A stretch of 64,000 bases of DNA from Acidimicrobiia bacterium (GTDB taxonomy: Bacteria; Actinomycetota; Acidimicrobiia; Spongiisociales; Spongiisociaceae). Both the position numbers and the translations under genes were made by a program. The stretch spans positions 2,833,388 through 2,897,387 of the forward strand of contig OZ246890.1 in NCBI GenBank assembly GCA_965231815.1. Reading direction: 5' to 3'. Below the pieces are notes generated by a model, which saw nothing but the letters and a program-made list of their open reading frames with translations, ran no database searches and was not told the origin of the DNA. Every line of letters starts with the position of its first letter. Within the stretch, counting starts at the first letter, position 1. Below, in pieces: positions 45 to 56,242 of the stretch.

Positions 45-512
45 ATGGATTACAGGGTTGCCAACACCATAGAAGTGCTGAACCGCGCGACGAGCGCCAT
101 CTGGTACGAGATGCCGGAGGAGGTGCGTCGCTTACTTACCCGCCGGGGGACCAAGGGCTACGGCTGGCCGATGATCATCTGCGCCGAGGAGAACACGCGG
201 GCTTTCGCCGACGACATGGCGGTGTTACGTAACGCGGGGCGGGACCAGTCACTCGACCTAGAGACCCTGAAGCAGGTGATCCGGATGTTCTGTGACGCTC
301 AGCTGGGTATCCTTCACAACTGGTACGGACTCGATGACAGCGTCGAGTTGGTCCGGAGTTCGCTCGATGCCCTCGATCACATTGAATCCCGTGAAGAGTA
401 CCTGGCTTTCACGCATGAGTTGAGCGTATATCTGGGCCGCCTCCATTGGTGGGCGGACACCCTGGTGCCGTGGGACGACATCAGCGCCAAGTACGAGGAA
501 ATGACCAACTAG
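45..512 (+). CDS. hypothetical protein, first gene of the putative BMC operon (5' end may lie outside the window)
   Basis: Complete ORF with helical N-terminus, packed 21 nt upstream of the Gfo/Idh/MocA gene on the same strand; no recognisable motif. Confidence 0.4.
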   Translation: MDYRVANTIEVLNRATSAIWYEMPEEVRRLLTRRGTKGYGWPMIICAEENTRAFADDMAVLRNAGRDQSLDLETLKQVIRMFCDAQLGILHNWYGLDDSVELVRSSLDALDHIESREEYLAFTHELSVYLGRLHWWADTLVPWDDISAKYEEMTN

Positions 513-533
513 CAGGGAATCGAGGAGGAGCCA

Positions 534-1595
534 GTGGCCGGACGAGACGGTAACTACAGGGTCGGGTGCGTGGGTGCGGGCTTCGTCGCCGAGGTGTACC
601 ACCTACCCGTCCAACAGCGGGTCGAGGGTGTGGAGACGGTGGCGATAGCCGATCTCAACATGGACTTGGCCCGGCAAAGAGCAGACGAGTTCGGAGTCGC
701 CGAGGTGTACGGCCCGTTCGAGGACATGATCGAGCAAGCCGACCTGGACATTGTCTCCATATGCGTACCACCGTTTCTCCACCTAGCGGTCACGAAAGCG
801 GCCGCCGCAGCCGGGGTGCATGTCATCTGCGAGAAGCCGATGGCGGCATCACCGGAGGAGGTGGCGGAACTGGTCCAGGTTGTTGAGGACAGCGGGATCA
901 AGTTCATGATCGCCGAGAACTTCTGGTGGTATCCCGACCTGGTCGACGCCAAAGCGAGGATCGACGCCGGGCTGATCGGGGACCTGTTTCATGTGCGAGT
1001 CGAAGATTTCATCAACGACATCGATCCCACCTATCGGCGGGACCACGAACGGTTCCTCATTTACGAGCAGGATGTTCACTACATAGACGTGATCCGCCAC
1101 CTGGTTGATGACGACGTGGTGCGAGTGCATGCGATGACCCGCCGGATCCCCACTCAGCAAATCGCAGGAGAGAACTTTGCCATGATCACCATGGAGTTCG
1201 CCAACGGCGTAATCGCCCGGATCGACGAATGCTGGGTTTCAGCCCGCGGCGATCAGTACGTGATGCGGATGCGCATCGATGGCACCCTCGGCTCGATCTT
1301 CATCAACCAGCCCGATCATCCCTACAAGCTGTACACGGATAAGCAGGGTCTTGAGGGATGGCACTATCCACCAACCGACACCAAGCCTCCGGGCGGGCAC
1401 ACGGTGGTGGGGTATTCGGCCCCCTGGCCGGCCGACGAACTCCGAGAGGGTACGGTGGGGTGCTACATGGCCTTTCTCGACTACCTGAACGACGGCATCC
1501 CGCCCGCCACAGTGGCATCCGATAACGCCAAGACGATGGAGGTCGTGTTCGCAGCCTACGAGTCAGCCGAAACCCAGCAGGTGATCCACCTGTGA
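534..1595 (+). CDS. Gfo/Idh/MocA family NAD(P)-dependent oxidoreductase
   Basis: N-terminal Rossmann motif GCVGAGFVAEVYH, EKP motif (ICEKPMA), length 353 aa typical of the family. Confidence 0.8.
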   Translation: MAGRDGNYRVGCVGAGFVAEVYHLPVQQRVEGVETVAIADLNMDLARQRADEFGVAEVYGPFEDMIEQADLDIVSICVPPFLHLAVTKAAAAAGVHVICEKPMAASPEEVAELVQVVEDSGIKFMIAENFWWYPDLVDAKARIDAGLIGDLFHVRVEDFINDIDPTYRRDHERFLIYEQDVHYIDVIRHLVDDDVVRVHAMTRRIPTQQIAGENFAMITMEFANGVIARIDECWVSARGDQYVMRMRIDGTLGSIFINQPDHPYKLYTDKQGLEGWHYPPTDTKPPGGHTVVGYSAPWPADELREGTVGCYMAFLDYLNDGIPPATVASDNAKTMEVVFAAYESAETQQVIHL

Positions 1596-1645
1596 TCCTT
1601 CGATCCCCCCGACCGGATTACCCCGTTTAGGGGGCAGGCCCTCTG

Positions 1646-2467
1646 ATGGCCACGGCGTTGCGGGACGGGCTGCTCGATTACTTCCGTTCGGACGGGTGGG
1701 CTGCAGCCCAAGCCCTGCTGGAGAATCCGGGGGTCAGTTTCTTCGAGGCGAAGGTAACCACCCGGATCCACCCGTTGTCGCTGGAGTTCTTGTTCGTCGA
1801 GTACCTGGATCGGATCGGCCGTCGGGTGCGTAATGTGGGCCACGCCTTCGTCGGCGAATGGGGGTGGATCAAGATCTACCCGGAGGTCCGACCGGTGCTC
1901 AATATCGTGTGGCGGTACGACGACTCCTCGGTCATCGCAGCCCACCCCGAGGACTTCCTGGATGTGTGGACCGACGAGGGAGAGCGTGAATACCTGGAGG
2001 ATGTCGGGCCGAGAAGGATTGCCCGGGAGGACCGGGACGGGATCCTGTCGTACCTGGTGTCGGCGCACTGGAAGCAGGTTCTGGACCGGTACGCTGATTA
2101 CGAGACAGAGCACTTCCACACCTACCTCAACACCGACCTGCACCCCCACGACCTCGCCCCCTACCTGGTGGAGAGCCTGGCCGAGCGGGGATTCACGCTC
2201 CGGGTTCCCCCCTTCTTCCTGGCAAGGCCCGATCTCGGGCTCATGTGGATCGGCCTAGCTCCCGACGGGATGACCTCCCAGGAGGTGGCCTGCATCCATA
2301 CTCCCGGCACCCTCCTCGAGCCGAAGCGGCTCACCGATCAGGACCGGGAGTATGGGGGTGATCCCTGGACGGTGACCGACTTTCGCCGACGGGTAGCCCG
2401 AGACCCGTACGAGGTTCTCACACTGTCCGAGGCGAGGGGAATAGTCGATGAGATGGTGGGGCAGTGA
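1646..2467 (+). CDS. hypothetical protein (273 aa), translationally coupled to downstream aldehyde dehydrogenase
   Basis: ORF ends with GTGA stop/start overlap with the ALDH gene (GTG 2464). N-terminal amphipathic helix (ALRDGLLDYFRS) is a possible encapsulation peptide. Confidence 0.5.
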   Translation: MATALRDGLLDYFRSDGWAAAQALLENPGVSFFEAKVTTRIHPLSLEFLFVEYLDRIGRRVRNVGHAFVGEWGWIKIYPEVRPVLNIVWRYDDSSVIAAHPEDFLDVWTDEGEREYLEDVGPRRIAREDRDGILSYLVSAHWKQVLDRYADYETEHFHTYLNTDLHPHDLAPYLVESLAERGFTLRVPPFFLARPDLGLMWIGLAPDGMTSQEVACIHTPGTLLEPKRLTDQDREYGGDPWTVTDFRRRVARDPYEVLTLSEARGIVDEMVGQ

Positions 2468-4242
2468 GGAGGTTCGTCACCAGCGAGGACATTCGTCAAC
2501 TAGCCGAGATCGGCGAGTTCGAGTTCATGATGCGCGAGGGCACGGTCCTGACCGATGCAGCCCTCGACGAGGCCCACCGCCTAGGCGTTAGCTTGGTGGA
2601 AGGGTCCCGCCTGGCCGTTCCCCGGCCTGCGGCTACGGATGATCGGCCCGCTTCGTTCCCGCAGGTTCCCACGCCCCGCCCCTCCCAGGCGTTGACCGCT
2701 CCACCTCGAAACGATTCCACGACTCCCTCGGACGACCCGCCCCGCTTCGAGGGTCTTCCGGACCACTCCCACCTTCACTCACAACTCCTGATCGACGGTG
2801 AGTTCCGCGACGCCGCCGACGGGTCCACCAACCCTTCCGTGGACCCCGCCACCAACGAGACCATCCTGGATGTGGCTGCAGCAGCTGCGGAGGACATTGA
2901 TCTGGCAGTCCGGTCTGCTAGGCGGGCCTTTCGTAACTGGCGGCTGATGGACCCGGCTGACCGAGCCGATCTGCTACTCAAGGTTGCCGAGCGGATCGAG
3001 AATGAGCACGAGTTTCTTGCCAAGGTAGAGAGCCAAGACGTCGGGCGGCCGATACGGGAGACCACTCTGATCGACCTGCCGGCTTCCTGGGATCCGTTCC
3101 GGTTCTTCCAGGGCCTTGTACGGGCCATAGACGGTAGGGTTCTGGCCCTTCCCCGGGACTCACTCGACTACGTGCGCAAGGAGCCCATGGGAGTGGTGGG
3201 AATGATCATTCCCTGGAACTTCCCGCTGCACATCGCTTGCCGCAAATCCGCCGCGGCACTGGCGGCCGGCAACACCATCGTTCTCAAACCTCCGGAGTTG
3301 GCCCCCCTAACCTGTCTTGAGTTGGGACGTATTTGCACGGAGGCCGGCCTTCCTCCGGGTGTGTTCAACGTGGTCCCCGGCACCGGGGAGGTGGCGGGGA
3401 GGGCTCTGGTCCGCCACCAGGGTGTGGACAAGATCGCCTTCACCGGATCGACAGTGGTAGGTCGCTCTGTGATGCGGGGATCAGCTGGAACCATAAAGCG
3501 GGTGTCGCTTGAGTTGGGCGGCAAATCCCCGTCGATAGTCTTCGCCGATGCCAACCTCGACCGAGCAGTGAGCGGTGCCCTGTTCGGGATCTACCTGGCG
3601 CAAGGGCAGGTGTGCTCGGCCGGCTCCCGGATACTTGTGGAACGGCCCATATACGATGAGTTCTTGGAGCGGTTTGCCGCTAGAGCGGCATCCATACGGA
3701 TCGGTTTGCCGTGGCAATGGCGGACGCAGTTGGGCCCCTTGGTTAATAAACGCCAGATGGAGCGCGTCAACGAATACGTTGACATCGGCAGGGCTGAGGG
3801 AGCGACGGTTATCGGGGGCGGCTCCCCGCATGATGATGCCGAACTCGCCCGGGGAAACTTTATGGCGCCAACTTGCTTCGCCAATGTGGAACCCGGGTTC
3901 AGGATCGCGCAGGAGGAGATATTCGGTCCTGTGGCTGTGTTGATGCCCTTCAGCGGCGAGGAGGAGGCCGTCCGGCTGGCCAACGATGTTCGATACGGAT
4001 TGGCGGCCGGCATCTGGACCACGGATATCGGTAGGGCGCACAGGGTGGCTCGGGACTTGGAGGCCGGCTCCATCTGGGTCAACCACTTCGGCGTGTATCC
4101 CAGCGAAGCGCCTTTCGGTGGTTACAAGGAGAGCGGCACCGGACACGACCTAGGCTTGGAGTCGCTGCATGAGTACATGGAAACCAAGAACGTGCATGTC
4201 AACATAGGACGCGGATTCAATGACTGGTACAAGAAAAACTGA
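2464..4242 (+). CDS. aldehyde dehydrogenase with fused N-terminal EutQ-type domain and Pro-rich linker (BMC-associated)
   Basis: C-terminal ~450 aa show the ALDH active site (GQVCSAGSR), Glu motif (LELGGKSP) and GxxxxG NAD site. N-terminal ~50 aa (FVTSEDIRQLAEIGEFEFMMREGTVLTDAALDEAHRLGVSL) resemble the EutQ N-terminus (LITANDIRAA...IITPEAREVADLLGF). A ~100 aa P/T/S-rich linker follows. Confidence 0.85.
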   Translation: MRRFVTSEDIRQLAEIGEFEFMMREGTVLTDAALDEAHRLGVSLVEGSRLAVPRPAATDDRPASFPQVPTPRPSQALTAPPRNDSTTPSDDPPRFEGLPDHSHLHSQLLIDGEFRDAADGSTNPSVDPATNETILDVAAAAAEDIDLAVRSARRAFRNWRLMDPADRADLLLKVAERIENEHEFLAKVESQDVGRPIRETTLIDLPASWDPFRFFQGLVRAIDGRVLALPRDSLDYVRKEPMGVVGMIIPWNFPLHIACRKSAAALAAGNTIVLKPPELAPLTCLELGRICTEAGLPPGVFNVVPGTGEVAGRALVRHQGVDKIAFTGSTVVGRSVMRGSAGTIKRVSLELGGKSPSIVFADANLDRAVSGALFGIYLAQGQVCSAGSRILVERPIYDEFLERFAARAASIRIGLPWQWRTQLGPLVNKRQMERVNEYVDIGRAEGATVIGGGSPHDDAELARGNFMAPTCFANVEPGFRIAQEEIFGPVAVLMPFSGEEEAVRLANDVRYGLAAGIWTTDIGRAHRVARDLEAGSIWVNHFGVYPSEAPFGGYKESGTGHDLGLESLHEYMETKNVHVNIGRGFNDWYKKN

Positions 4243-4254
4243 GGAGGTCGGATC

Positions 4255-4533
4255 ATGCAAGGTGCTCTAGGGTTGATAGAGACCCGCGGGCTGGTCGGCG
4301 CCATAGAGGCGGCCGACGCGATGGCCAAAGCGGCCCGCGTCGAGATCATCGGTCACGAGGCGATCGGCGGAGGCTACGTCACGGTCATGGTGCAGGGCGA
4401 GGTTGGCGCGGTGAAATCGGCGGTGGACGTCGGTGCTTCCGCGGCCAAGAAGGTCGGGGATCTCGTGGCCGCCCATCTGATCCCCAAACCCCATAAGGAA
4501 TTGGCGAAGGTGAGCGCTCTGCTCGACGACTGA
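4255..4533 (+). CDS. BMC-H shell protein (PduA/EutM-type, Pfam00936)
   Basis: Canonical BMC domain: GLIETRGLVGAIEAADAMAKAARVEIIGHE...GGGYVTVMVQGEVGAVKSAVDVGASAA...DLVAAHLIPKPH. RBS GAGGAGG 8 nt upstream. Confidence 0.9.
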   Translation: MQGALGLIETRGLVGAIEAADAMAKAARVEIIGHEAIGGGYVTVMVQGEVGAVKSAVDVGASAAKKVGDLVAAHLIPKPHKELAKVSALLDD

Positions 4534-4643
4534 TCATGGTCTCCGATGGGGAGGGTGCCAAAAAGACAATCTAGCAGGGTTTTACGTACCCTCCTCGTCC
4601 GTTGGAGGAGGGATGAGCAGCCGAGAGCGAGAGCGAGGAGGCA

Positions 4644-4913
4644 TTGATGTTGTTGTGCCGTGTTACGGGAACCACCGTCGTGACGGCGCGCGCCGCCGGT
4701 CTGGGAGGAGCCAAGCTGTTGGTGGTCCGGCCGGAGGGCGGTGACTCCGTTTCGTCGTTCGTGGCGGTGGACGCTGTGGGAGCCGGGTCCGGGGATCTGG
4801 TACTGGTAGCCGAGGGCAGCGCGGCGAGGATTCCCGAAGCAATCGTGTCGGCTCCGACCGATGCAGCCGTTGTCGGCATTGTTGACGAAACAAGCCACGA
4901 CCCGGGATGCTGA
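4644..4913 (+). CDS. BMC-P vertex protein (EutN/CcmL/PduN-type, Pfam03319)
   Basis: MLLCRVTGTTVVT...GAKLLVVRPEG...VAVDAVGAGSGDLVLVAEGSAARI...TDAAVVGIVDE matches the EutN/CcmL pentamer family. Confidence 0.85.
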   Translation: MMLLCRVTGTTVVTARAAGLGGAKLLVVRPEGGDSVSSFVAVDAVGAGSGDLVLVAEGSAARIPEAIVSAPTDAAVVGIVDETSHDPGC

Positions 4914-5545
4914 CGGTGACGAGTCCAGGACAATCGGGTAGCGGGAGCGGCAACTCTTTGCGCGCCTACGTATATGTGGACAAGATGCAGCCCACTTGGG
5001 CGGCCTACGTGGGAAGGAACGACAAAGAAAGTTCGGGACTGGAAGGGATGGCGCAGCTTTATGTGGAGGTTGCGCCCGCCACGCTGGTGTTCTCGCTCGC
5101 CAACGCCGCGCTGAAGAACACCGAGACGTCCTCATCCATGCTGGTTGCCGAGCGGAGATACGGGACGCTCGAACTACACTCGGCCAACCCCGACGCGGTC
5201 CGCCAGGCCGGAACCATCATCCTGGCGATGATCGGCAGTTCCTCGGCCCCCGGCATCGTGCCCTCGGCGGTGACTACCCGTATCGTCAACAACGTGACCG
5301 GCATCGAAGCCGGGCTGGTGAACCGGATGCGTGTCCGCAGCCGGCTCAGAGAAGGTGACGCCATGCTGGTCGTGGAGACGGAGCCCGCCGCCTACGTGGC
5401 ACTGGCCGCCAACGAAGTGGAGAAGCACACCTCGCTGCGCATGATCCTCGTGCGGCTCCACGGCGCCAGCGGTCGTCTGATCCTCGCCGGGAGCGAAGCC
5501 GAGGTGGAGATCGGGCGCCAGGTGGCTCTCGGGGCCCTCGGGTAG
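4907..5545 (+). CDS. divergent tandem-BMC-domain (BMC-T-like) shell protein
   Basis: 212 aa with two BMC-like halves. The second half (AAYVALAANEVEKHTSLRMILVRLHGASGRLILAGSEAEVEIGRQVALGAL) aligns to the AxDAxxKAAxVELxxxxxxGxG...GDVxAVxxAV pattern. The first half is more degenerate. The start overlaps the BMC-P stop. Confidence 0.5.
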   Translation: MLTVTSPGQSGSGSGNSLRAYVYVDKMQPTWAAYVGRNDKESSGLEGMAQLYVEVAPATLVFSLANAALKNTETSSSMLVAERRYGTLELHSANPDAVRQAGTIILAMIGSSSAPGIVPSAVTTRIVNNVTGIEAGLVNRMRVRSRLREGDAMLVVETEPAAYVALAANEVEKHTSLRMILVRLHGASGRLILAGSEAEVEIGRQVALGALG

Positions 5546-5554
5546 GGGGGAGTC

Positions 5555-6103
5555 GTGCGCCAGATACTGACCACCGAGGATATCCGGACCGCAATCCGCC
5601 GGGGCAAGACGGAGTTGGTTGTCGAGCCCCCGACCATCATCACCGCAGCCGCTCGGGACGAGGCCAACCTGGCCGGGCTCCGGATCATCGAAGGTCCCAA
5701 GGACCGCAACGCCGACATAGTCATCAAGGTGTCCGGCGAAGATATCCGGGCGACGCTACTACTCGACGAGGCGCCTGTCACCGCGTCGGCCATCCGTGAC
5801 CTCCTTCCCCTCTCCGGTACCGTCAACCATGCCCGCCTAGCCGGCGACGAACTGATGTTCCCGATCCGGACCTACCTGGGTCCGGAGAACCAATCCAAGG
5901 CTCAATCGGCGGGAAACATCGCCTATTGGCCTGACCGGATGATCATCGCCATGTTCTACGGGGACACCGGCGGTGTGGGTCTCACCAACGTATTCGCACG
6001 GGTGGTCGCCGACGACATGGAAGCCTTCCGCAAGGCGGGAGACTTCGTCTGGAAAAACCAGGGAGTGGAACTCCGCATCGAGCATGCCAGGCCGCCGGCG
6101 TAG
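5555..6103 (+). CDS. BMC-associated protein with EutQ-type N-terminal domain (EutQ-like)
   Basis: N-terminus MRQILTTEDIRTAIRRGKTELVVEPPTIITAAARDEANLAGLRIIEG is homologous to the ALDH N-terminus in the same operon and to the EutQ N-terminal region. The C-terminal ~110 aa are of uncertain fold (no His cupin motif). GTG start with GGGGGGAG RBS. Confidence 0.55.
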   Translation: MRQILTTEDIRTAIRRGKTELVVEPPTIITAAARDEANLAGLRIIEGPKDRNADIVIKVSGEDIRATLLLDEAPVTASAIRDLLPLSGTVNHARLAGDELMFPIRTYLGPENQSKAQSAGNIAYWPDRMIIAMFYGDTGGVGLTNVFARVVADDMEAFRKAGDFVWKNQGVELRIEHARPPA

Positions 6104-6307
6104 CAGAGTTCGGCTAAGGGAGCTCCGCACCGAGAGGCCGCGTTCGTCCCTGATGCCGGGTCGCTCAAGTGCGTGTCACTTCTGCAAAAGTTTATCCCCC
6201 CAATTCACTCGTGCGGGTTGTTGTGAACCGTACCGGGTATTCCCGATGCGTGTCACACCCCCGCCGTACAGTTACAAGTGTTGATCGGCGGACCAGCAGA
6301 CCGTTGC

Positions 6308-6385
6308 CTAGCCCCGATTATTCATGGATAGGGGTATGGAGGATGAGTGGAGTAGACCAGTTTCACACCCTGACCAGGCAATACG
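6308..6385 (+). mobile_element. truncated 5' copy of a CTAG-terminated MITE-like element (family R1)
   Basis: CTAGCCCCGATTATTCATGGATAGGGGTATGGAGGATGAGTGGAGTAGACCAG... is ~85% identical over ~75 nt to the 5' ends of the full copies at 30719 and 45330 (reverse). No 3' inverted repeat is present. Confidence 0.45.
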
Positions 6386-6677
6386 ACATCATGAGCGACA
6401 TGGTAGACCTGACAGCCATCCTCACGAACAGGCCGCACATGTTGGCCATCGGCGAACAGGGTTGCCCCTTCGATGAACGGAGCACCGCTTCGCCGCTTGG
6501 CCGCGACGTTCGACGATCTCCGTCTCGGAGCCAGACTCGTTACCGACGAAGACAAGGAATGGCTCCGCATCGGCGCGCGGAATGCCGAGACTCAGGGTCG
6601 TCTAACGTTCTGGGAAGCTGAGCTTCAGCGGCTTTCTGGTGCCGGGTCGGAGCTCTTCTTCCTGCAGGGAGGCTATC

Positions 6678-7454
6678 ATGATGAGATTTAAGGATCGGGT
6701 TGCGATCGTAACCGGAGGGGCGTCGGGAATCGGTGCCGCCACCGCCAGGGAGTTCCTGCGGGAAGGTGCCCGCGTAGTCGTAATCGATTTGCGACCGGCG
6801 GATCACGCTTACCTAACCCGTGACCTGGACTGTTCCCGGTCGATGCTTCGATCCATCAAAGGCAACGTGGCGGAGATCGAGGACTGTCACCGTGCCGTCG
6901 CTGAAGCCGTCGACGCCTTCGGTCGTCTGGACTGCCTGGTGAACAACGCGGCCAGCTTTGTTGCGCAAGGGATTGACGTGACGAAAGAAGGCTGGAATGC
7001 CAGTTGGTCCACCAACGTCCTCGGCGCCACCAACATGGTCAAAGCCGCTTGCGAACCTCTAAAGGAGAATGGCGCCGGGGTAATCGTGAACGTCGCCAGC
7101 GTGGTGGCGGTCGTCGCCAAACCGGGTGCCTGGACCTATCACGGCACCAAGGGAGCGTTGCTTTCTCTCACCAAGTGCATGGCGATCGACCTAGGTGTCC
7201 ACGGTATTAGGGCGAACACCGTTAGCCCCGGCTGGACCTGGACGGAAGCGACCGCGGCCCTAATCGACCGCGATGCCTACGAGAAGTACATAGTCCCGCA
7301 TATGATGCTCAACCGCTGCGGCGAGACCATCGACGTGGCCCGCGCCATCCTATTCCTGTGCAGCGACGACGCCTCTTTCGTCACCGGAACGGACCTTAAG
7401 GTGGACGGCGGATACAGCGCCATGGGCCCGGAGGGCAAAGCCAACCCGGTGTGA
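6678..7454 (+). CDS. SDR family short-chain dehydrogenase/reductase
   Basis: TGGASGIGAATAREF glycine-rich NAD(P) motif, NNAA motif, YxxxK region (YHGTKGAL). Start taken at the ATG following the GGGAGG RBS. Confidence 0.85.
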   Translation: MMRFKDRVAIVTGGASGIGAATAREFLREGARVVVIDLRPADHAYLTRDLDCSRSMLRSIKGNVAEIEDCHRAVAEAVDAFGRLDCLVNNAASFVAQGIDVTKEGWNASWSTNVLGATNMVKAACEPLKENGAGVIVNVASVVAVVAKPGAWTYHGTKGALLSLTKCMAIDLGVHGIRANTVSPGWTWTEATAALIDRDAYEKYIVPHMMLNRCGETIDVARAILFLCSDDASFVTGTDLKVDGGYSAMGPEGKANPV

Positions 7455-7467
7455 CACCACTCCCGAT

Positions 7468-8694
7468 TCAACCGCCTTGCCGGGCGATCGCCCGGTAAAG
7501 AGCGGCGGAGAGGGCACGGGGCCGGCGGTCGGTTCCGACTTCCATGTGGGTCTGGTTCATCACGTATCCGAACCCCACTTGCGATACCGGGTCGGCGTAG
7601 CCCACCGCGCCGCCGATACCCTGCATCCCGAAAGCCTTGTCGTCGGGTCCCAACGACAAACCGCCCGGGGTGGAGCGGCCATAGCCGAGAGCTACCCGGG
7701 ATTCCCCGCCGAATACGGCGTCCGTGCCGCGTGCCTGCTCCGCGGCGTGGACGGTGATCGACTCCTCCGACACGATTCGCGTCCCGTCGAGTTTCCCTCC
7801 CCCGGCCAGCATGGCGTACATCCGGGCCACGCTGCGAGCATCACCGATGCCATTCACCGCCGGAACCTCAACCCCCCAGAAGTCGTGATCGTTGGCCAGA
7901 TCGATCGGCGATCCCCGCCCCGGACCGATGAACAGGGCGGCGGCGGCGGGGTTCTCAGGTCCCCCAAGCACCCGGATAAGATCAAACGCCGGATCCGGAT
8001 CGTGCAGGAGCGTCGCCACCCTCCGATGATGCTCGACGGGAAGCCCGATCCAGAAGTCAAGACCGAGCGGACCCGCCACCTCGTCCGCGAAGAACGTCCC
8101 GGGCGTTCGGCCGTCGATCCGCCGTACCAACTCGCTCACCAACCAGCCGAAGGTAATGGAGTGGTATCCGAGCCGCGTGCCCGGCTCCCAGGCAAGGGGT
8201 GCACCCGCCAACCGGGCGGCGATCTCATCGGTACGCCCCCAGCCGGAGGCATCGTCGAAGCTCACCAGGTCCCAGTACTCGGGGAAGGACGGCACCCCCA
8301 CGGTATGGCTCAGAACGTGACGGACCAGCGCCCCGCCCTTGCCCCGAACCCCGAACTCGGGCCAGTAAGCGGCGACCGGTTCGTCAAGATCCATCTCACC
8401 CCGGTCAACCAGGATCTGGGCAACCAGGGCTGCCGGCCCCTTGGTCACCGAGAATACGGGCACCAGCGTGTCCTCCCCCCACGGACGATCGGAAGTGGCC
8501 ATCCCACCCCAGACGTTGACCACGCACTCGCCGCCCAAGTAGGCGCAGAACTCCGCACCCACTTCACCCCTCGTGGCGAAGTTCTCCTCGAACGCGTCGA
8601 CCACCGGCTCGAAGCCGACCACCGCATGCCCTCTGATGTCGGTCACCGCGCTCCTTCCCCCGCCGGCAGGAGCAGTCCCGGCCCGGGGGAACAT
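7468..8694 (-). CDS. serine hydrolase of the beta-lactamase/esterase (EstB/PBP-like) family
   Basis: S-x-x-K motif (FSVTKG) near the N-terminus; length 408 aa; family-typical conserved segments. Confidence 0.75.
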   Translation of the reverse strand: MFPRAGTAPAGGGRSAVTDIRGHAVVGFEPVVDAFEENFATRGEVGAEFCAYLGGECVVNVWGGMATSDRPWGEDTLVPVFSVTKGPAALVAQILVDRGEMDLDEPVAAYWPEFGVRGKGGALVRHVLSHTVGVPSFPEYWDLVSFDDASGWGRTDEIAARLAGAPLAWEPGTRLGYHSITFGWLVSELVRRIDGRTPGTFFADEVAGPLGLDFWIGLPVEHHRRVATLLHDPDPAFDLIRVLGGPENPAAAALFIGPGRGSPIDLANDHDFWGVEVPAVNGIGDARSVARMYAMLAGGGKLDGTRIVSEESITVHAAEQARGTDAVFGGESRVALGYGRSTPGGLSLGPDDKAFGMQGIGGAVGYADPVSQVGFGYVMNQTHMEVGTDRRPRALSAALYRAIARQGG

Positions 8695-8761
8695 CCGGAC
8701 TGCTCGCTACGCGATGCAGGCCCCGGGTTCGGCCCGGGGCCTGCTCTCGTACGCCGAGACC

Positions 8762-10120
8762 TTATAGCGGCTTCATGATCCATGAGACTAGGTCCGGCCG
8801 AGCCTGGAGCTTCTGGAACCATTCCTTCTCAACCTCGAACACCCGCCAATCGGAATCGGCCGGGACGGTTTCCGCTTCGACCGCGTTCCTGTGCGAGTGG
8901 GCGATCGACAGGTCCATGTTGGTGGGAGAACCATCGGCGAAGTAATGATCCCAGGCGTCCTGGAACCGTACGTAGTCCTCGATGTTGAACAACTCCGCGA
9001 TCAGATCCTCGTCGCTCACCAGTACGCCGCCCGCTCGGCGCACCGCTTCGTGCATTGGCGGGAGCACTTCGTCGGTACGGTTGTGCAGGTAGCGGGTGGT
9101 CCGGTACCAGATGGCCAGCAGACGCAACGCTGTCTCCTCGTTCGCGGCCAACCAGTCCTCGGTGGAAGCGAAAGTGCTGTACCAGAGTCCGGTCGCTCCG
9201 AATGCCTGGAACGGGGCGGCCGACACGAACTTGTCTCTCAGGTCAGGAGCGGTCAGCATCCGGTGCATCTGGATGCTGTCGCCCATGTGGTAGTCACCCT
9301 CCCCGGCGATGAACGAGGTGGAGGCAACGTTGATGTCCGCGAAGCCGATGATCTCAACGTCGTCGAGGGTGAGCCCGCCCTGTTCCAGCAGAGCCTTGAG
9401 GGTCGGAACACTGCCTGGGTCCCAGATTGTGAAGCTCCGTCCGGCGAGGGACGCGGAAAACTCCCGGTTGGCCTCGTCCAGATCACCGCCTGCGTCAACG
9501 AAGAAGTCGAGCCACGGCTTGTGTACCGGCCCGCCGACTTCGGGATCCGCGCGGCCTATCACCTGGAAACCCCTCCATTGGTATGACGTAATCCAGTTCC
9601 GGAACTCTGGAATGCTCTCGTACACACCGAACGCGCAAGCCGGGCAGGAGGCGATCACGTCAAACTCGCCTCGCTTCAGAGCAGCCGTGGGGAAGAAACC
9701 CTGGCTCGAGATGTCAAGTTCGATGTTCAACTCATCGGCTATGCCAAGCTGCTTGGAGGCGGCCCACAGGTTGAATGGATAGAACGGCCCGCCGTTGATC
9801 CGCACCGTGACGAGTGGCGCGTCCGGGATCATCGGCGCCATCTCATCCTCTTCCTCCGGCTCCACGAGCACCTCGCGTACGATCTCTCGGATCACCGTTG
9901 TCGGAGGCGCGGTCGTGGTGGGTCCGGCTGTGGTGGTAGGGGCCGCGGTCGTCGTCGGCGCCAGGGTCGTGGTCGGCGCGGCTGTGGTGGTAGGGGCCGC
10001 GGTCGTCGTCGGCGCCAGGGTCGTGGTCGGCGCTGGCTCGTCTGCCCCACAAGCGGTCGCTACTAGGGCCACCACCGCCATTATAGAAAATAATCTCCAC
10101 CGCTTGAGCGAGCTTCTCAC
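8762..10120 (-). CDS. ABC transporter substrate-binding lipoprotein (NMT1/SsuA/TauA-like) with Thr/Pro-rich linker
   Basis: Lipoprotein signal (VALVATACG), (TTTAAPTTT)n linker, then a type-2 periplasmic binding fold; adjacent to two SsuC-like permeases. Confidence 0.7.
   Translation of the reverse strand: MRSSLKRWRLFSIMAVVALVATACGADEPAPTTTLAPTTTAAPTTTAAPTTTLAPTTTAAPTTTAGPTTTAPPTTVIREIVREVLVEPEEEDEMAPMIPDAPLVTVRINGGPFYPFNLWAASKQLGIADELNIELDISSQGFFPTAALKRGEFDVIASCPACAFGVYESIPEFRNWITSYQWRGFQVIGRADPEVGGPVHKPWLDFFVDAGGDLDEANREFSASLAGRSFTIWDPGSVPTLKALLEQGGLTLDDVEIIGFADINVASTSFIAGEGDYHMGDSIQMHRMLTAPDLRDKFVSAAPFQAFGATGLWYSTFASTEDWLAANEETALRLLAIWYRTTRYLHNRTDEVLPPMHEAVRRAGGVLVSDEDLIAELFNIEDYVRFQDAWDHYFADGSPTNMDLSIAHSHRNAVEAETVPADSDWRVFEVEKEWFQKLQARPDLVSWIMKPL
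9928..10035. repeat. perfect 54-bp tandem duplication (x2) inside the SBP linker-coding region
   Basis: GGCTGTGGTGGTAGGGGCCGCGGTCGTCGTCGGCGCCAGGGTCGTGGTCGGCGC occurs twice head-to-tail, encoding repeated TTTAAPTTT linker units on the minus strand. Confidence 0.8.
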
Positions 10121-10202
10121 CTTGTCCTCCTATCTCGTAGGCTCCGTCCATCCTGTGCCAAAAGTTGCTCGGATCGGGCGAATCAAGGCTTTCGCGCACG
10201 GG

Positions 10203-11066
10203 TTAGTTGCCAAGCATGCTACCGACCAGTCCCCGATCCGTGCGTGGACTCCAGCGGGTTACTTTTGCCGATAAGTAACGAACCATCTGATCGAAGATGA
10301 TCGCCATAACGCAAAAGAGTGCCACGATCATCAGCATTCCGGACGGATCAAGGTACTGGTTACGGACCAGCAAGATATATCCGAGCCCTTCCCGTGAGCC
10401 CAGAAATTCGGCCGCAACATCGAGCCCCCACGCCGAAGCCACCGCTAGACGGAGAAACCCCACCAGGTGCGGAATGATCGCCGGGATGACAACCGTCCGG
10501 TAAATGAGGAATCGGCTCGCTCCCGTCGTGAGGGCGGCCTGCACGTAGATGTGGGGAACGTTGCGGATAGCTTCCAACGTGACAAGAGTGAACATGAGGA
10601 ACATACCAAGCGCCACCAGACCCACCTGGGGTAGGAAGCCGATGCCGAACCACAGAATGAACAACGGAATCAGCGCGAACAAGGGAACGGGCCGGACCAG
10701 GTTATCCAACGTGGCCTCGAAGAATCTTCTGACGAAAGGGCTGTATCCGAAGATAATGCCGGTGGTCAGACCTAGCACGCTTCCCAGGACCAACCCCAAC
10801 AAGACCATCTGTAAAGACACCCACGCGGCCGACGGGATGAGGTCGATTATCTCTATCAGAGACCCGAGAACCCTGTCCGGTCCGGGGAGTTTGGCCGGAT
10901 CAATGATGCCCCTCGTTAGCACGTACCAGAACACCAGCCCTATCAACGGAACCACCGACGCTTCAGCGAGCCGCCTTCCCGTCCCGACCGTACCCGGCTG
11001 CATGTGAAACTGCCTTCCCCCACTTCCCCTCACGGATCGGGAGGCGCGCCGCCCCATGGCCGTCAA
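10203..11066 (-). CDS. ABC transporter permease (SsuC/TauC-like, BPD_transp_1)
   Basis: Multiple TM helices and an EAA-like loop (ALTTGASRFLIYRTVVIPAIIP); overlaps the upstream permease by 4 nt. Confidence 0.8.
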   Translation of the reverse strand: MTAMGRRASRSVRGSGGRQFHMQPGTVGTGRRLAEASVVPLIGLVFWYVLTRGIIDPAKLPGPDRVLGSLIEIIDLIPSAAWVSLQMVLLGLVLGSVLGLTTGIIFGYSPFVRRFFEATLDNLVRPVPLFALIPLFILWFGIGFLPQVGLVALGMFLMFTLVTLEAIRNVPHIYVQAALTTGASRFLIYRTVVIPAIIPHLVGFLRLAVASAWGLDVAAEFLGSREGLGYILLVRNQYLDPSGMLMIVALFCVMAIIFDQMVRYLSAKVTRWSPRTDRGLVGSMLGN

Positions 11067-11971
11067 TTCCCCAACATGTGGCCGACCATGCCTTTTCTAG
11101 CCCTAGGGCTCCATCGTGTCAGTCGCGAGGCGGCAAACCGCACCGACTGATCGAAGATCACGGCCAGCGAGCAGAAAATGAAAACGATCAGAACGATCGA
11201 AGCGGTGTCCAGATAATACGAACCCCTGCTGATCATGATGTATCCGAGACCTTGCTGGCTTCCAGAGAGCTCAGCGGCCACGTCGAGTCCCCAGGCGTAG
11301 GCAGCCCCGAGCCGGACCGACGAAATGAGATGCGGTGTTATGGCCGGCATCACGACTGTCCGGTAGATCCGAAACCGCCCGGCCCCTGCGGTCAGGGCGG
11401 CCTTTACGTAGATTTGCGGGACATTCCGAACCGCTTCGAGGGTCGTCAGGCTCAACAACAGGAAGATACCTATCGCCACCAGGGCGACCAAGCGCACCAT
11501 CTCAACCCTGAACCACAGGATCATCAGAAAGATGAATGCGATGAACGGTACCGGGCGGACCAGGTTGTCGAGAGTGGCCTCGAAGTAGCGACGGACCGCC
11601 GGGCTGTAGCCGAGTAGGAGGCCTGCCGAGATCCCGGATAGGCCGCCGATCGTCAGGCCGATCAGTACGATCCGCAGAGAAGTCCAGAGAGCACCGGGCA
11701 GATCGTCCCGGAGCTCTACTCCACTATTGAACACGGCTTCAGGCGAAGGCAGATACACCTGATCGATCCGAGAGAACCCCGGCTCCCCTGTTGTGAAGAA
11801 CACTCGAAGAGCGGAGGGCAGGCTCTCGGGCTCGATCGGCATCTCTCTAGTGAGGAGGAACCACACGACCGCCAGGATTATCGGCACCACCGCGGCATGA
11901 GCGATCAGGAGGGACTGACGCGAGAAGCGCGCCTGGCCGAGCAGCGCTAGCCGACCGACACCTATTCCCAT
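11063..11971 (-). CDS. ABC transporter permease (SsuC/TauC-like)
   Basis: Paralog of the adjacent permease (same EAA loop, ALTAGAGRFRIYRTVVMPAITP); 6 predicted TM segments. Confidence 0.8.
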   Translation of the reverse strand: MGIGVGRLALLGQARFSRQSLLIAHAAVVPIILAVVWFLLTREMPIEPESLPSALRVFFTTGEPGFSRIDQVYLPSPEAVFNSGVELRDDLPGALWTSLRIVLIGLTIGGLSGISAGLLLGYSPAVRRYFEATLDNLVRPVPFIAFIFLMILWFRVEMVRLVALVAIGIFLLLSLTTLEAVRNVPQIYVKAALTAGAGRFRIYRTVVMPAITPHLISSVRLGAAYAWGLDVAAELSGSQQGLGYIMISRGSYYLDTASIVLIVFIFCSLAVIFDQSVRFAASRLTRWSPRARKGMVGHMLGN

Positions 11972-12305
11972 CCGGTTCCTCTCCGACGCGGGGCAGATAG
12001 TACCGACTCAACCCCCGTTCTTCATGTTTCCCACACCCCTATGAAGGGCCACTTCACGCTTGGTTTAGTGACTTTCATCGCATGCACTCGACGGGCAAGG
12101 GTCACAGTCGACTCGACAGGGGTGTCGAATCTGCCGTTATGCCAGGTTAGGGGGTTCGACAACCGGGCATCATCGGCTCGGACAACCCTGTGCAGAAAAA
12201 ATGGGGGATAACCTCCGTTCCGTCACCTGTCGGCCTCCTCAACCTGGTACGGAGAGGTAGGATCAGATACCAACCCATTCGATCCCCGAACGAGGAGGAA
12301 GGCCG

Positions 12306-12740
12306 ATGAGGCGTCGAATTGTTCTGGGGATCGTTCTCCTGCTGCTCGCTGCATGCGGGACCGGCTCGGGCCCGGCCGCCACCACTACCACCTCGACCTC
12401 CACCACACTGCCACCTACCACCACACTGCCTCCGACGACCGTGGTGGCGCCCACGGAAGGGCTTCCGGATGACTACCCGCCTGAACTGGTTCCGCCCGGT
12501 ACGACCTCGGTCTACTGGGAACCGACCGGCGCCGGTACCGACGTTTTCTTCGAGTCCTCCGCTGGTTTCGACGAGGTTCTCGACTTCTTCACCAACGTAC
12601 TCGAACCGCCACTCGATGTCAGGACCGAGGACGGTGTCGAGCGGGCAATCTGGGTCTACAAACCCGGCGTGGAACACATCGCGGTCATCCTCGAATACGA
12701 CTCGGAAGGCCTCCACATAAGAGTGTCAGGGCTGTTCTGA
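12306..12740 (+). CDS. small secreted lipoprotein with Thr/Pro-rich linker, function unknown
   Basis: Signal peptide plus lipobox (LLLLAACG), TTTSTSTTLPPTTTLPPTT linker; GGAGGAAGG RBS. Confidence 0.5.
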   Translation: MRRRIVLGIVLLLLAACGTGSGPAATTTTSTSTTLPPTTTLPPTTVVAPTEGLPDDYPPELVPPGTTSVYWEPTGAGTDVFFESSAGFDEVLDFFTNVLEPPLDVRTEDGVERAIWVYKPGVEHIAVILEYDSEGLHIRVSGLF

Positions 12741-13121
12741 CCGTCACGGTCTGCGTCTCGATCGGACTGAATTGCCAAACAAGGGTGTTGCCTTGACCGG
12801 ATGAACCGGGCGCACGCTGTTGCCGATGCGTGGGCCGACGTAGAGATATAGCAGCGTTCACCGTTGCACACATCAAGAAGTAGCCCGACCCGGAGTTCGA
12901 CCGTGGCCAGTCTCGAACCTGGTCACAGCCCGCTGCCGCGTGCGATCAGTTCGATTCGCTTCCGGGCCGTCCAAGGCCGCACGCACAGCTGGGCGCCGAC
13001 CGTGAAGAACGCCCTACATCGCTCGTCGGACCCCGCCGTTCGGCCCCGCCAGCCACGAAACCAGTTGCGCCTCCCGTCCACCGAGGCAATAATCGGCTCA
13101 GCTACCTTGGGAGGAGGAGCG

Positions 13122-14336
13122 ATGCCTGATGGCCGTGACCCGCTTAGCAGGAGGAACTTCGTAAAGCTAGTTGGTAAGGGGGCGGTGGTGGCAGGCGCTA
13201 TGCCGGCCGCGCTGGCCGCCTGCGGCGAGGACGCTCCACCCGAAACGGTGATCGTCACCGAGACCGTCATCGAGGAAAAGATTGTCACCGAGACCGTCAT
13301 CGAGGAAGCGCCGACTACCACGCTCAGCCCGCGTGATGCGGGCTTGGCGTCCGAGAACGGCGCCGACCTTCTCGTATACGCCCCTCCCGGACGAGAGATC
13401 CCCACCCAGTGGCCGGGTTACCTGGGTAGGTTCCCGGAGCCGCAGTTCGCTGCCACCGCGGGAAGCTTCGCTTCGCTCGGCGAGCTGCAGTTGGGCGCTA
13501 TCGAGCCGGATATCTGGAACCCGTGTTTCGCGGTGTTCGACACCGCGGTAAGCGAGGGGCTCGTCCAGCCGTGGGATACGGACCTGATCCCCAACTTCAA
13601 GGATCTGAACCCCAACCTGACCGCCGCCACCCAGCGTGACGGTCAGCAGTATGCCATTCCGCTGCTCTACGGTCTGGCGATCCCGATTTACCGGGCCGAC
13701 CTCTACACACCCAAGGAGAACTCGTACTCCATCCTCTTCGATGAGGACTTGGCGGGGAAGGTCACGTGGACGGACTCGGCGGAGTGGTTCGTGGTGGCCG
13801 GGAAGCTTCCCGAGAACAACGTTGCCAACCCGCTTGATCCGACCGAGGAGGAACTGGACCGGCTGGTCGAGTTCCTGAAGGCGAAGATCCGGGTGGTGCC
13901 GGCGGCTCTGTACAGCGATCTTGCGACCAACCAAACAGATATGGCCACGGGCAACATCGTGGCGTCCTACGTAGCGCCCACCCAATGGATCGAGTTGACC
14001 AAGCAGGGCGTCGACATCGCTTTCGTCACCCCTGATGAGGGCTTCATCGGGTTCTCGTGCGGGTACTTCCTTCTCGCCGGGGCCGACCAGTACTACCACG
14101 CCCACGAGTGGGTCAACGCGGCGGTCAGCGTCGAGGCGTCCCTGACCATCTCGAATAAGTTCAACTTCGGGAACTCCAACCTGAAGGCGACCGCCGTTGA
14201 CAACCCTTTGCTGGTTGACGTGATGGGTCTGGGTAACCCCTCCGCGCTGGACGGAGTTTCGCTACTAGACAAGATGCAGAACATCGACAGGCTGAACGAC
14301 GCCTGGATTGAGGTCAAGGCCTCGGCGGGAGTCTGA
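13122..14336 (+). CDS. ABC transporter substrate-binding protein (PotD/PotF-like polyamine/opine family), Tat signal
   Basis: Start reassigned to the ATG after a GGAGGAGG RBS. Twin-arginine motif (SRRNFVKL), AACGED lipobox-like region, and a PotD-family fold downstream. The upstream part of the long ORF has no coding signal. Confidence 0.75.
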   Translation: MPDGRDPLSRRNFVKLVGKGAVVAGAMPAALAACGEDAPPETVIVTETVIEEKIVTETVIEEAPTTTLSPRDAGLASENGADLLVYAPPGREIPTQWPGYLGRFPEPQFAATAGSFASLGELQLGAIEPDIWNPCFAVFDTAVSEGLVQPWDTDLIPNFKDLNPNLTAATQRDGQQYAIPLLYGLAIPIYRADLYTPKENSYSILFDEDLAGKVTWTDSAEWFVVAGKLPENNVANPLDPTEEELDRLVEFLKAKIRVVPAALYSDLATNQTDMATGNIVASYVAPTQWIELTKQGVDIAFVTPDEGFIGFSCGYFLLAGADQYYHAHEWVNAAVSVEASLTISNKFNFGNSNLKATAVDNPLLVDVMGLGNPSALDGVSLLDKMQNIDRLNDAWIEVKASAGV

Positions 14337-14393
14337 TCCGCATTCAATTCCGGTGGTCTGTCCGTCCGGTAGGCTGACGAGCCGGGCTGACCC

Positions 14394-15323
14394 TTGCCGT
14401 TAAGCACCGTGACACCCGAGAACGACACCTCCGAGAAGTCAGGTCGCGTGGCCGGCCTGGAGCGCCGACGCCATCGGGTAACGCGCTCCCTGCTGGCCTT
14501 GCCGCTGGGGTGGCTGCTACTTTTTTTTGTTATCCCGGTATCGCTGGTGGTGGCTTACAGCGTCGGGATTCTGGCGACCTTCACCAAGGAGGAGGGGGTC
14601 AGCTTGGAGAGCTGGCGGCTCTTCCTGTCCGGGGAAAACGTCTACATGCTGCTGTTCCTCAAGTCATTCCGGATGGCGTTGATCGTGGCCGTGGTGGTGG
14701 TGATCGCCGCCTACCCCATCTCCTACTTCCTGGCGATGATCGCCGACAAATACAAGTACTCGTTGCTGCTATTGATGATCGCTCCGTTCATGACCAACTT
14801 CTTCATGCGGGTGATGGCCTGGAAGGTGTTGCTCGGCAAGCAGGGGGTGATCAACTCCTTCCTGGTTTGGTCGGGTCTCCGCGAAGTGGGGAATCCCATC
14901 GAGAGCCTTGCCTTCGGCGAAGTCCCGGTGATGATAGTGTTGGGATACGTCTGGATTCCCTTTGTGATGCTCCCTATGTTCGCAGCCATGATCAGTATGG
15001 ACCGCCGGCTGCTGGAGGCGGCCGCCGACCTAGGGGCGAGCCGATGGCGGGCTTTCTGGAAGGTGACCTTCCCGCTCAGCCTCCCCGGAGTGGTGGCGTC
15101 CTTCTTCTTCGTCTTCATCCCGACCATCGGGGAGTTCGTGGTGCCCAAGCTCGTTGGTGGGACTAGGGGTTACATGTTCGGGAGCGCCATCGACGACCTG
15201 TTCGGAATGGGCCTCGACTGGCGCACCGGCTCCGTACTTTCCCTTTGGCTGGTTATGGCCGTGTTCGTACTGGCTCTGGTATTCATGCGGTTGGTACGCT
15301 TCGGCAGGTTGGCAGAGTCATGA
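14394..15323 (+). CDS. ABC transporter permease (PotB-like)
   Basis: 6 TM helices and an EAA motif region (EAAADLGASRWRAFWKVTFP). Confidence 0.8.
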   Translation: MPLSTVTPENDTSEKSGRVAGLERRRHRVTRSLLALPLGWLLLFFVIPVSLVVAYSVGILATFTKEEGVSLESWRLFLSGENVYMLLFLKSFRMALIVAVVVVIAAYPISYFLAMIADKYKYSLLLLMIAPFMTNFFMRVMAWKVLLGKQGVINSFLVWSGLREVGNPIESLAFGEVPVMIVLGYVWIPFVMLPMFAAMISMDRRLLEAAADLGASRWRAFWKVTFPLSLPGVVASFFFVFIPTIGEFVVPKLVGGTRGYMFGSAIDDLFGMGLDWRTGSVLSLWLVMAVFVLALVFMRLVRFGRLAES

Positions 15324-16201: not shown

Positions 16202-16232
16202 GCATGAGCGTCCGCCGGGAACGGAAAGCGTA

Positions 16233-36254: not shown

Positions 36255-36312
36255 CTCTCCATTGTGGCGCGTGTGAGGTGACATGTGAAGCCACCGTCTA
36301 CCCTTTCGGATA

Positions 36313-55964: not shown

Positions 55965-56242
55965 ATATCTATAACCTCTAATCGACAAGTACGAGACCGT
56001 CGCGTTTCGTGGTGTGGGCTGTTGTCGCGGGTGGTCTTGGGTATAGCGGCGGGTTGTTTGGTGTCTGTGATGGTTCCGGGTTGAACCTTGTTCGTTGGAT
56101 GGAGAAATCAGACATGGGGGATCTACCCCGAGACTTTCTTGCCGTCCGCCGGGGTCCGCCGAGGTTACCTTCTCTCACGGAGATTGTCGGCTATCGTCAC
56201 GGTGCAAAGTGCCCAACGCTTCTGGGGAAGGTGAATTACAGG

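Follow-up and report, generated by a model that had tools for sequence, protein, structure and literature searches.

The subject of this work is an operon at the start of a 64-kb stretch of DNA from an Acidimicrobiia bacterium (contig OZ246890.1; the entire stretch is referred to as the window below), which very probably encodes a genuine bacterial microcompartment (BMC) of an uncatalogued type. Nine open reading frames (ORFs) lie on the plus strand between positions 45 and 7454, with exactly the coordinates reported in an initial annotation of this DNA, and are named g1 to g9 in the order in which they follow each other. The eight co-oriented genes g1 to g8 span positions 45-6103. The first of them (g1, 45-512) encodes a stand-alone helix-bundle protein of 155 residues that had been listed as unknown, but matches PF18631 (Cucumopine_C) at 50.7 bits. 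It is followed by g2 (534-1595), a nicotinamide adenine dinucleotide (phosphate) [NAD(P)]-dependent oxidoreductase of 353 residues whose earlier assignment to the Gfo/Idh/MocA family was confirmed (PF01408, PF22725 and PF02894), and by g3 (1646-2467), a 273-residue member of a small uncharacterised family without a family match in Pfam or NCBIfam. Next come an aldehyde dehydrogenase (ALDH) of 592 residues (g4, 2464-4242), three shell protein genes (g5, 4255-4533; g6, 4644-4913; g7, 4907-5545) and g8 (5555-6103), encoding a 182-residue protein that matches DUF3830/cyclophilin-like families over residues 56-168. The window begins inside this operon, as had been suspected, since a gene of the phosphotriesterase (PTE) family (PF02126) precedes g1 in related loci.

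The shell assignments made earlier from the translations stand well above the thresholds of the respective profiles. The hexamer protein BMC-H (g5, 92 residues) scores 92.6 bits against PF00936 (cut-off 24.5), and the pentamer (vertex) protein BMC-P (g6, 89 residues) scores 79.8 bits against PF03319 (cut-off 25). The 212-residue tandem-domain protein g7, previously described as a divergent tandem BMC-T-like protein, has no match in the local Pfam copy and matches the NCBIfam model CcmP with an E-value of 3.5e-42 (144 bits, below the carboxysome equivalog cut-off of 340), and the domain PF27545 (CsoS1D_N) is present in its homologues. Because of these two observations we regard g7 as a CcmP/CsoS1D-like BMC-T of the double-stacking (dp) kind, in agreement with the earlier description. 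No further shell genes were found among the ORFs checked in the rest of the window, so the count is one gene for BMC-H, one for BMC-P and one for BMC-T. Among orthologous loci the BMC-H proteins are 82-94% identical, and BMC-P is found in every shell-bearing locus.

The PTE gene and g1 to g8 are syntenic in at least 13 related loci (L001, L008-L015 and L017-L020), which mostly belong to sponge-associated Ca. Spongiisociaceae/Acidimicrobiia metagenome-assembled genomes (MAGs). Twelve loci came from a scan of species-representative genomes and are named Ca. Spongiisociaceae, Ca. Spongiisocius, Acidimicrobiia or only "bacterium" (MAGs); in these genome loci and in metagenome contigs the g1-g8 block shows 75-95% amino-acid identity. 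The ratio of nonsynonymous to synonymous substitution rates (dN/dS) is 0.03-0.28 at dS 0.35-1.8 for all eight genes, indicating that they are under purifying selection. These data bear directly on the idea of a non-functional, relict shell whose enzymes work free in the cytosol. In its favour, the ALDH and shell genes of one relative, L021, are reduced to fragments while the others are kept, and the pathway also occurs in shell-less versions. However, the three shell genes are all intact both in the window and in 13 or more related loci, with dN/dS of 0.05-0.28 across dS up to 1.8, and since dN/dS is low in all eight genes the shell genes are evidently maintained; we therefore find the relic explanation hardly credible. 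As for L021 itself, positions 9509-10001 retain only ALDH residues 1-33 (9525-9623) and BMC-P residues 10-46 (9836-9946); these remnants sit between g3 and g8, with fragments of an ISL3 transposase nearby and the other operon genes kept.

In g4 the PF00171 match (569.6 bits) starts at residue 118 and ends at residue 577, so that the catalytic body (2815-4242) is preceded by an extension of ~105 residues, as the initial annotation had noted. This extension is made up of a 47-residue module (2464-2604) and a Pro/Ser/Thr/Ala-rich linker of ~55-70 residues, read from the translation as residues ~48-117 (2605-2814) and lying outside the PF00171 match. The ALDH gene is situated directly upstream of the BMC-H gene. 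The best NCBIfam models for g4 are betaine aldehyde dehydrogenase (BADH), HpaE, StyD and aminobutyraldehyde dehydrogenase, and its best relatives in the PDB are 4o6r, 4go4, BADH and human ALDH2 (429-485 bits). The translation also contains the motifs LELGGKSP, with the general-base Glu, and GQVCSAG, with the catalytic Cys. Because its best relatives are BADH, HpaE and ALDH2 and because it carries these Glu and Cys motifs, g4 is placed in the hydrolytic class and predicted to be an NAD(P)-dependent, coenzyme A (CoA)-independent ALDH. The canonical core of a CoA-acylating ALDH and a phosphotransacylase is thus replaced here by a hydrolytic class 1/2-type ALDH. No PF06130 phosphotransacylase was detected among the window ORFs checked or in related loci, and, as the initial annotation had stated for the locus, no PduL/Pta or iron-dependent alcohol dehydrogenase (Fe-ADH) domain occurs among those ORFs of the remaining window that were checked. 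Likewise, the claim that no known signature enzyme is present was upheld both within the window and, in relatives, just upstream of it.

The same 47-residue module was found at the N-terminus of g8 (5555-5695). Over residues 1-47, g4 and g8 share 40% identity (E 2e-10), which bears out the earlier statement that a second protein carries the N-terminal domain of the ALDH. The g8 module, through a stretch comprising its residues 1-59, matches residues 1-50 of EutQ (E 7e-7), and shows weak matches to the C-termini of PduM and of the Eut protein TIGR02536 (eut_hyp); a profile of the 47 residues gave no credible match in the PDB or Pfam. The description of the 182-residue protein as EutQ-like was thus correct for this module only, as the g8 body (5705-6103; PF12903, 47.5 bits) is a cyclophilin-like/DUF3830 beta-barrel and not the EutQ cupin, and PF06249 finds no match at this locus. 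In the AlphaFold2 (AF2) model the g8 module forms a small alpha/beta unit with a predicted local distance difference test (pLDDT) score of ~90, suggesting a small folded domain, unlike the usual amphipathic helix. Each shell-bearing locus contains exactly two copies, on the ALDH and on g8. The module is conserved in all ALDH orthologues and in the ALDH of a sister BMC type (see below), and it is absent from non-BMC homologues of g8, which are 131-135 residues long and 56-58% identical in the body. PTE, Gfo and g3 bear no extension, their lengths being within three residues of those of their counterparts in the shell-less loci L006 and L007. Because of this pattern of presence and absence, and because a EutQ-like extension is also described for the malate dehydrogenase (MDH) of types MIC1 and MIC2 in the part of the BMC catalogue compared here (Sutter et al., 2021; its extent is given below), we consider the module an encapsulation signal that, judging from sequence, probably directs the ALDH and g8 into the shell. 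That these two proteins are the cargo seems to us reasonably probable.

Comparisons at the sequence and model level also indicate that g1 and g8 are the helix-bundle and beta-barrel halves of a predicted split enzyme of the McbB/KslB type. Both McbB and KslB combine a beta-barrel with a helix bundle, the domain order being swapped between them, and have an active site lined by both domains (PMC12012969). The g1 protein aligns with the helix-bundle domain of McbB (3x27) at E 2e-4, and the structures that best match the g8 model are those of McbB (3x27; E 1e-5, probability 1.0) and KslB, the DUF3830 structure 3kop ranking behind them. At the sequence level, the barrel family profile matches residues 22-162 of McbB (E 1e-7) and 190-302 of KslB (E 5e-6). 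The relatives of g1, sampled as 128 representatives, are mostly stand-alone proteins of ~155 residues, and those of 290-300 residues are fusions of cyclophilin-like/DUF3830 and Cucumopine_C domains in both orders. The two genes are ~5 kb apart in the window operon, and in the shell-less locus L022 the DUF3830 and Cucumopine_C genes overlap (1552-1959 and 1956-2459) and come after those for Gfo and a g3 homologue. The dN/dS of g1 is 0.03-0.16, and the strongly invariant motifs of the pair are NHARLAGDE and WPDR; invariant g8 residues are H92, D98, E99 (nearly so), E111, W125, D127 and R128. Membership of the pair in the McbB/KslB fold is supported by these sequence and model comparisons. With McbB, KslB and cucumopine synthase (3x27, 9ns6; PMC12012969) the pair shares the cyclophilin-like beta-barrel, the helix bundle and a tolerance of either domain order; it differs from them in being encoded by two separate genes, in the tag on the barrel, in a catalytic Glu that appears not to be conserved at the aligned position, and in a context that is catabolic and shell-associated rather than that of a natural-product cluster. 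The initial suggestion that the 155- and 273-residue proteins might be the signature enzyme was consequently half right at best: the former is one half of a two-gene McbB/KslB-like enzyme, whereas the latter, g3, belongs to a PTE-Gfo-g3 module that exists also without any shell.

The best solved relative of g2 is the uncharacterised oxidoreductase 5uhw, followed by DgpA and enzymes of the levoglucosan dehydrogenase type; its homologue in L006 and L007 is 351 residues long, nearly equal in length, and g2 has no BMC-specific extension. The g3 family is built from two beta-alpha-beta-beta-beta modules and has an invariant His/Glu-rich motif. Modules of this kind, paired around a metal site, mark the VOC (glyoxalase/bleomycin-resistance/dioxygenase) superfamily, to which g3 may possibly belong. 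Its invariant residues include H66, E155, H156, H158 and E213, C216 being nearly invariant, and suggest a metal site and hence a putative metalloenzyme. This protein accompanies Gfo in every context, and PTE also in L006 and L007; in 5.8 billion proteins its relatives make up only 26 clusters, which stem entirely from metagenomes or MAGs, and an exact-sequence look-up gave no match. The PTE encoded upstream of g1 in relatives (348 residues, PF02126), a PTER-like amidohydrolase, has PTER (9efa), 3k2g and Pmi1525 as its best solved relatives. Two further shell-less modules come from unrelated organisms. One of them (L022, 63-3553), apparently of low G+C content, contains genes for Gfo, a g3 homologue, DUF3830, Cucumopine_C and a D-glutamate-cyclase-like protein. 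The other (L026, 2229-9803) comprises Cucumopine_C, hydantoinase A/B, Gfo, a 287-residue protein that is possibly g3-like, RidA, DUF3830 and a GntR regulator. The gene content of both hints at the catabolism of a cyclic amide or imine. A four-gene module of Gfo, g3, barrel and bundle thus exists free, and is joined to an ALDH and a shell in sponge symbionts.

Outside this clade, the BMC-T proteins nearest to g7 (45-51% identity) belong to a sister BMC type represented by loci L023 (3819-10603), L028 (2767-10597) and L024 (150-1496) from other Actinomycetota, one homologue being named Gaiellales. The sister BMC-T occurs in many JGI metagenome clusters of up to 357 members. The sister gene order is GATase, GXGXG, glutamate-synthase-like, ALDH (601-624 residues), BMC-H, DUF3830 (126 residues), a protein of 158-159 residues, BMC-P and BMC-T. 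The L023 ALDH is 69% identical to g4, including the N-terminal module and the linker, and the shell proteins are 76% (BMC-H), 63% (BMC-P) and 50% (BMC-T) identical to those of the window. The 159-residue protein is Cucumopine_C-like (hhalign 98.5%, E 2e-15), so that a DUF3830 and a Cucumopine_C-like protein are here encoded between shell genes, and the barrel/bundle pair is, as far as gene order and homology tell, intrinsic to this shell lineage. The two types differ in that the sister DUF3830 protein lacks the N-terminal domain and in their feeder genes, which in the sister type are N-methylglutamate-synthase-like, ornithine-cyclodeaminase-like and of a gamma-glutamyl-amine pathway, and here are PTE, Gfo and g3. 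Close to these genes, L028 also encodes an ornithine-cyclodeaminase-like protein, a pair of glutamine-synthetase-like proteins, a PuuD-like hydrolase and an Fe-ADH, a neighbourhood which we take, from the known Puu and N-methylglutamate pathways, to serve amine catabolism via glutamate conjugates. Both BMC types have the tagged ALDH and the H/P/T shell together with the barrel/bundle pair, and it is mainly for this reason that we prefer the pair over Gfo, g3 and PTE as the candidate for an aldehyde-generating signature enzyme, a role that we assign to it only tentatively.

For comparison with described systems we used the catalogue of Sutter et al. (2021; PMC8217296), of which the text of type descriptions and the table of hidden Markov models (HMMs) were covered, the locus diagrams being images. 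The descriptions covered were those of ACI, ARO, BUF2/3, EUT3, FRAG1-8, GRM6, HO, MIC2-4, MIC6, MIC7, MUF2/3 and part of SPU, together with further passages on MIC1, SPU6 and RMM. Within these parts we found no type that matches the locus, in line with the initial view that its type is undescribed. The HMM table contains none of PF01408, PF12903, PF04126, PF18631 and PF02126, and a search of the same material by Pfam number returned only locus-tag coincidences for "01408" and "12903". The sister type was not found in the catalogue text either. In a full-text literature search of incomplete coverage, nothing linked microcompartments to sponge Acidimicrobiia, DUF3830, cyclophilin-like proteins, Pictet-Spenglerases or N-methylglutamate.

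Judged by these parts of the catalogue, the closest types are MIC1 and MIC2 by shell and targeting domain and ARO by dehydrogenase class. This raises the question of whether the locus belongs to a named type (MIC1, MIC2, RMM or ARO) whose signature enzyme lies outside the window. Like MIC1 and MIC2 as described there, it has an H + P + Tdp shell set (one of each here), no phosphotransacylase and a BMC-specific EutQ-like N-terminal extension on a cargo enzyme; MIC1 is actinobacterial too, and the shell proteins are 41-68% identical to those of a MIC1 locus on the Rhodococcus plasmid pRB98 (L025), with 41% for BMC-T. The earlier comparison with MIC-like loci thus holds for the shell set and the EutQ-like module. 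It fails for the ALDH, since g4 is of a different class and only 24% identical to the L025 ALDH over a partial alignment. In the MIC1 and MIC2 descriptions, moreover, the extension is carried by the pfam02866 malate/lactate dehydrogenase and the ALDH is bare, whereas here it is found on the ALDH and on the DUF3830 protein. The MDH, 6-phosphogluconate dehydrogenase (6-PGDH)-like protein, glutamine synthetase, EutJ and zinc-dependent alcohol dehydrogenase of those types have no counterpart in this locus, which has PTE, Gfo, g3 and the barrel/bundle pair; pfam02866, 6-PGDH-like and glutamine synthetase genes were found neither in the operon nor in relatives. ARO, known from Micromonosporales and Pseudonocardiales, is likewise an actinobacterial BMC with a CoA-independent ALDH, and this enzyme is related to (amino/hydroxy)muconic-semialdehyde dehydrogenases, HpaE-type models being among the best matches of g4 (PMC10470539). 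According to that study, the ARO ALDH was the only microcompartment-associated one outside the CoA-dependent family, and it has no targeting peptide (PMC10470539). ARO further differs in a shell without BMC-T and in its signature enzyme, a LigB-type ring-cleaving dioxygenase with two pfam02900 subunits; PF02900 finds no match here. Because the genes upstream of the operon in more than 12 relatives include no known signature enzyme, no pfam02866, pfam00120 or pfam02900 gene is present, and the enzyme families of the locus are missing from the catalogue's HMM table, membership in a named type is largely refuted and, in our judgement, very improbable. Note also that in L025 (Rhodococcus oxybenzonivorans plasmid pRB98, 9615-10957) a 128-residue "hypothetical protein", consisting of a EutQ-N-like module and a proline-rich tail, is encoded directly upstream of the MDH, whose annotated start lacks the extension; possibly the gene is split or its start was wrongly annotated.

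Taking these observations together, we lean, by a little more than an even chance, towards an uncatalogued catabolic metabolosome in which a tagged, CoA-independent ALDH is combined with a g8/g1 pair that releases an aldehyde. According to this proposal, the 47-residue domain would dock the ALDH and g8 to the shell, and g1 would enter bound to g8. Inside the shell, the g8/g1 pair would act on a nitrogen compound by iminium-type chemistry and release a reactive aldehyde, possibly an amino-aldehyde, which the ALDH would oxidise with NAD(P)+ to a carboxylate. As this product is a carboxylate, neither CoA nor a phosphotransacylase would be needed. PTE, Gfo and g3, which carry no extension, would probably act in the cytosol in steps before or after, and the substrate would probably be imported from the sponge host by the linked polyamine-type transporter described below.

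Several points weigh against this proposal. Shell, encapsulation and activity are all predicted from genes. The barrel protein of the sister type has no N-terminal domain, and g8 of L021 retains its domain though the ALDH and shell are largely deleted there. The shell-less modules in L022 and L026 have no adjacent ALDH, and for this reason an aldehyde intermediate is not proven for the pathway. For the barrel, the g8 model reaches only moderate confidence (pLDDT 73, and less than 50 in some segments). The loop Glu that follows the YG motif in McbB, taken as the catalytic one, aligns with a Gly in g8, the loop having no invariant acid; this comparison of the catalytic Glu (McbB Glu97/KslB Glu274) comes from a profile alignment at ~20% identity in which the offset of the PDB numbering was inferred. 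The near-invariant Glu of the g8 family, E99 in the motif NHARLAGDE, lies away from the McbB loop position, so that chemistry of the Pictet-Spengler type is not supported. No lumen-targeted enzyme for NAD+ regeneration is evident, and the assignment of the substrate rests on the family names of neighbours that vary between loci.

Some of these points would be accommodated if the BMC were real but the aldehyde were produced by Gfo, through alcohol oxidation, or by g3, as a lyase, entering the shell bound to cargo. The pair would then be accessory, handling imines or aldehyde adducts or serving as a shell-cargo adaptor comparable to EutQ or PduM. Piggy-back encapsulation is known from other microcompartments, Gfo and g3 are conserved as tightly as the rest and consistently found with the pair, the catalytic McbB Glu appears to have no conserved counterpart at the aligned g8 position, and the N-terminal domain of g8 resembles segments of the assembly-linked EutQ and PduM. 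However, Gfo, g3 and PTE lack a BMC-specific extension and are unchanged in shell-less loci, the sister BMC type does without all three, yet keeps the pair between shell genes, and the invariant motifs of the pair, together with its existence outside BMC loci without the N-terminal domain, fit an enzyme better than an adaptor. We thus regard this explanation as possible, if on the whole doubtful.

A third option is a biosynthetic compartment, in which the pair, inside the shell, would join an amino acid to a keto acid or an aldehyde, giving an opine or a Pictet-Spengler-type alkaloid that serves the symbiosis. All characterised members of the fold, i.e., McbB, KslB and cucumopine synthase, are biosynthetic condensing enzymes, and sponge holobionts are rich in Pictet-Spengler-type alkaloids. 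Nevertheless, an irreversible ALDH bearing the same targeting domain would destroy an aldehyde serving as co-substrate, the genes linked to the operon encode an importer and hydrolases and not tailoring or export functions, the shell-less relatives are found in a catabolic context (hydantoinase, RidA and a GntR regulator), and the catalytic Glu appears not to be conserved. A biosynthetic role consequently appears improbable, and the catabolic metabolosome remains our preferred interpretation.

Downstream of the operon, a PotF/PotD/YdcS-like importer of the ATP-binding cassette (ABC) type (a binding protein at 12864-14336, two permeases and an ATPase) and a CocE/NonD hydrolase are encoded on the plus strand at 12864-19098 (Pfam/NCBIfam). 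These genes directly follow g8 in L010, L012-L014, L017, L018 and L020, and the importer is the likely uptake system associated with the operon. Compared with other loci, the window has an insertion of ~6.7 kb (6104-12863) that separates the importer genes from g8. The insertion holds a short-chain dehydrogenase/reductase (SDR) gene and, on the minus strand, genes for a beta-lactamase-family protein (7468-8694) and for an NMT1-type ABC system (8762-11971) whose binding protein has a low-complexity TTTAAP/TTTLAP linker. The SDR is g9 (6639-7454, plus strand; 271 residues), which the initial annotation had counted as part of the locus. Its domain was confirmed, but its membership was not, as it is not syntenic in relatives: it follows g8 after a gap of 535 nt, its homologues are kilobases away or absent, and it is not a conserved member of the locus and probably lies outside the unit. 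Scans for promoters and terminators 3' of g8 were uninformative. In the distant lineage L020 (~70% identity), genes for an aminotransferase, a threonine-synthase-like pyridoxal phosphate-dependent enzyme and an unknown protein of 269 residues precede PTE, and an aspartate dehydrogenase gene lies 3' of g8.

The neighbouring families in relatives include creatinase/M24, CN_hydrolase, aminotransferase, aspartate dehydrogenase, hydantoinase A/B and RidA. These neighbours, the PotF/PotD-like binding protein, the closeness of the PTE to PTER (9efa) and the glutamate- and amine-pathway genes around the sister type suggest, weakly, that the substrate is likely a nitrogen compound. Ectoine, taurine, creatinine and an opine were considered as substrates and set aside, as the relevant families (M24/creatinase, Aminotran_3, PTER-like, hydantoinase and MocA-type) vary between loci and none is diagnostic. 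The remainder of the window is ordinary chromosome, with genes for aconitase, FabF, recA, miaB and an E2 acyltransferase. It also contains, on the minus strand (39285-44588), an apparently split Type ISP restriction-modification enzyme, comprising a 958-residue ORF (41712-44588) with nuclease, helicase and coupler and a 250-residue ORF (39285-40037) with the Type_ISP_C specificity domain; no methyltransferase-bearing ORF was picked up between the two. Four further ORFs (35493-36332, 51932-52852, 54785-55372 and 56009-57301) have a high third-position G+C content and no Pfam match at E 1e-5.

To our knowledge, almost all described metabolosomes share a shell, a signature enzyme, a CoA-acylating ALDH, a phosphotransacylase and helical encapsulation peptides. 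The locus described here keeps the shell and changes the other three core elements, and its natural shell-less partial pathway is available for comparison. We would like to propose, while holding it less probable than its negation, that the sponge and sister types constitute an unrecognised actinobacterial lineage of metabolosomes, with a split catabolic signature enzyme of the Pictet-Spenglerase fold, a CoA-free ALDH and, in place of an amphipathic helix, a small folded EutQ-N-type tag that recruits the cargo; the pair could then be, e.g., an iminium lyase or a retro-Pictet-Spengler-type enzyme that frees an aldehyde from a nitrogen compound. If this is true, it would add a new chemistry to those that are compartmentalised, assign the McbB/KslB fold a catabolic role for the first time and DUF3830 a function, and offer a compact three-protein shell with a folded 47-residue tag for engineering. 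It would also mean that sponge-associated Acidimicrobiia process a host-derived nitrogen compound via a toxic aldehyde, and the sister type suggests that the lineage reaches beyond sponges.

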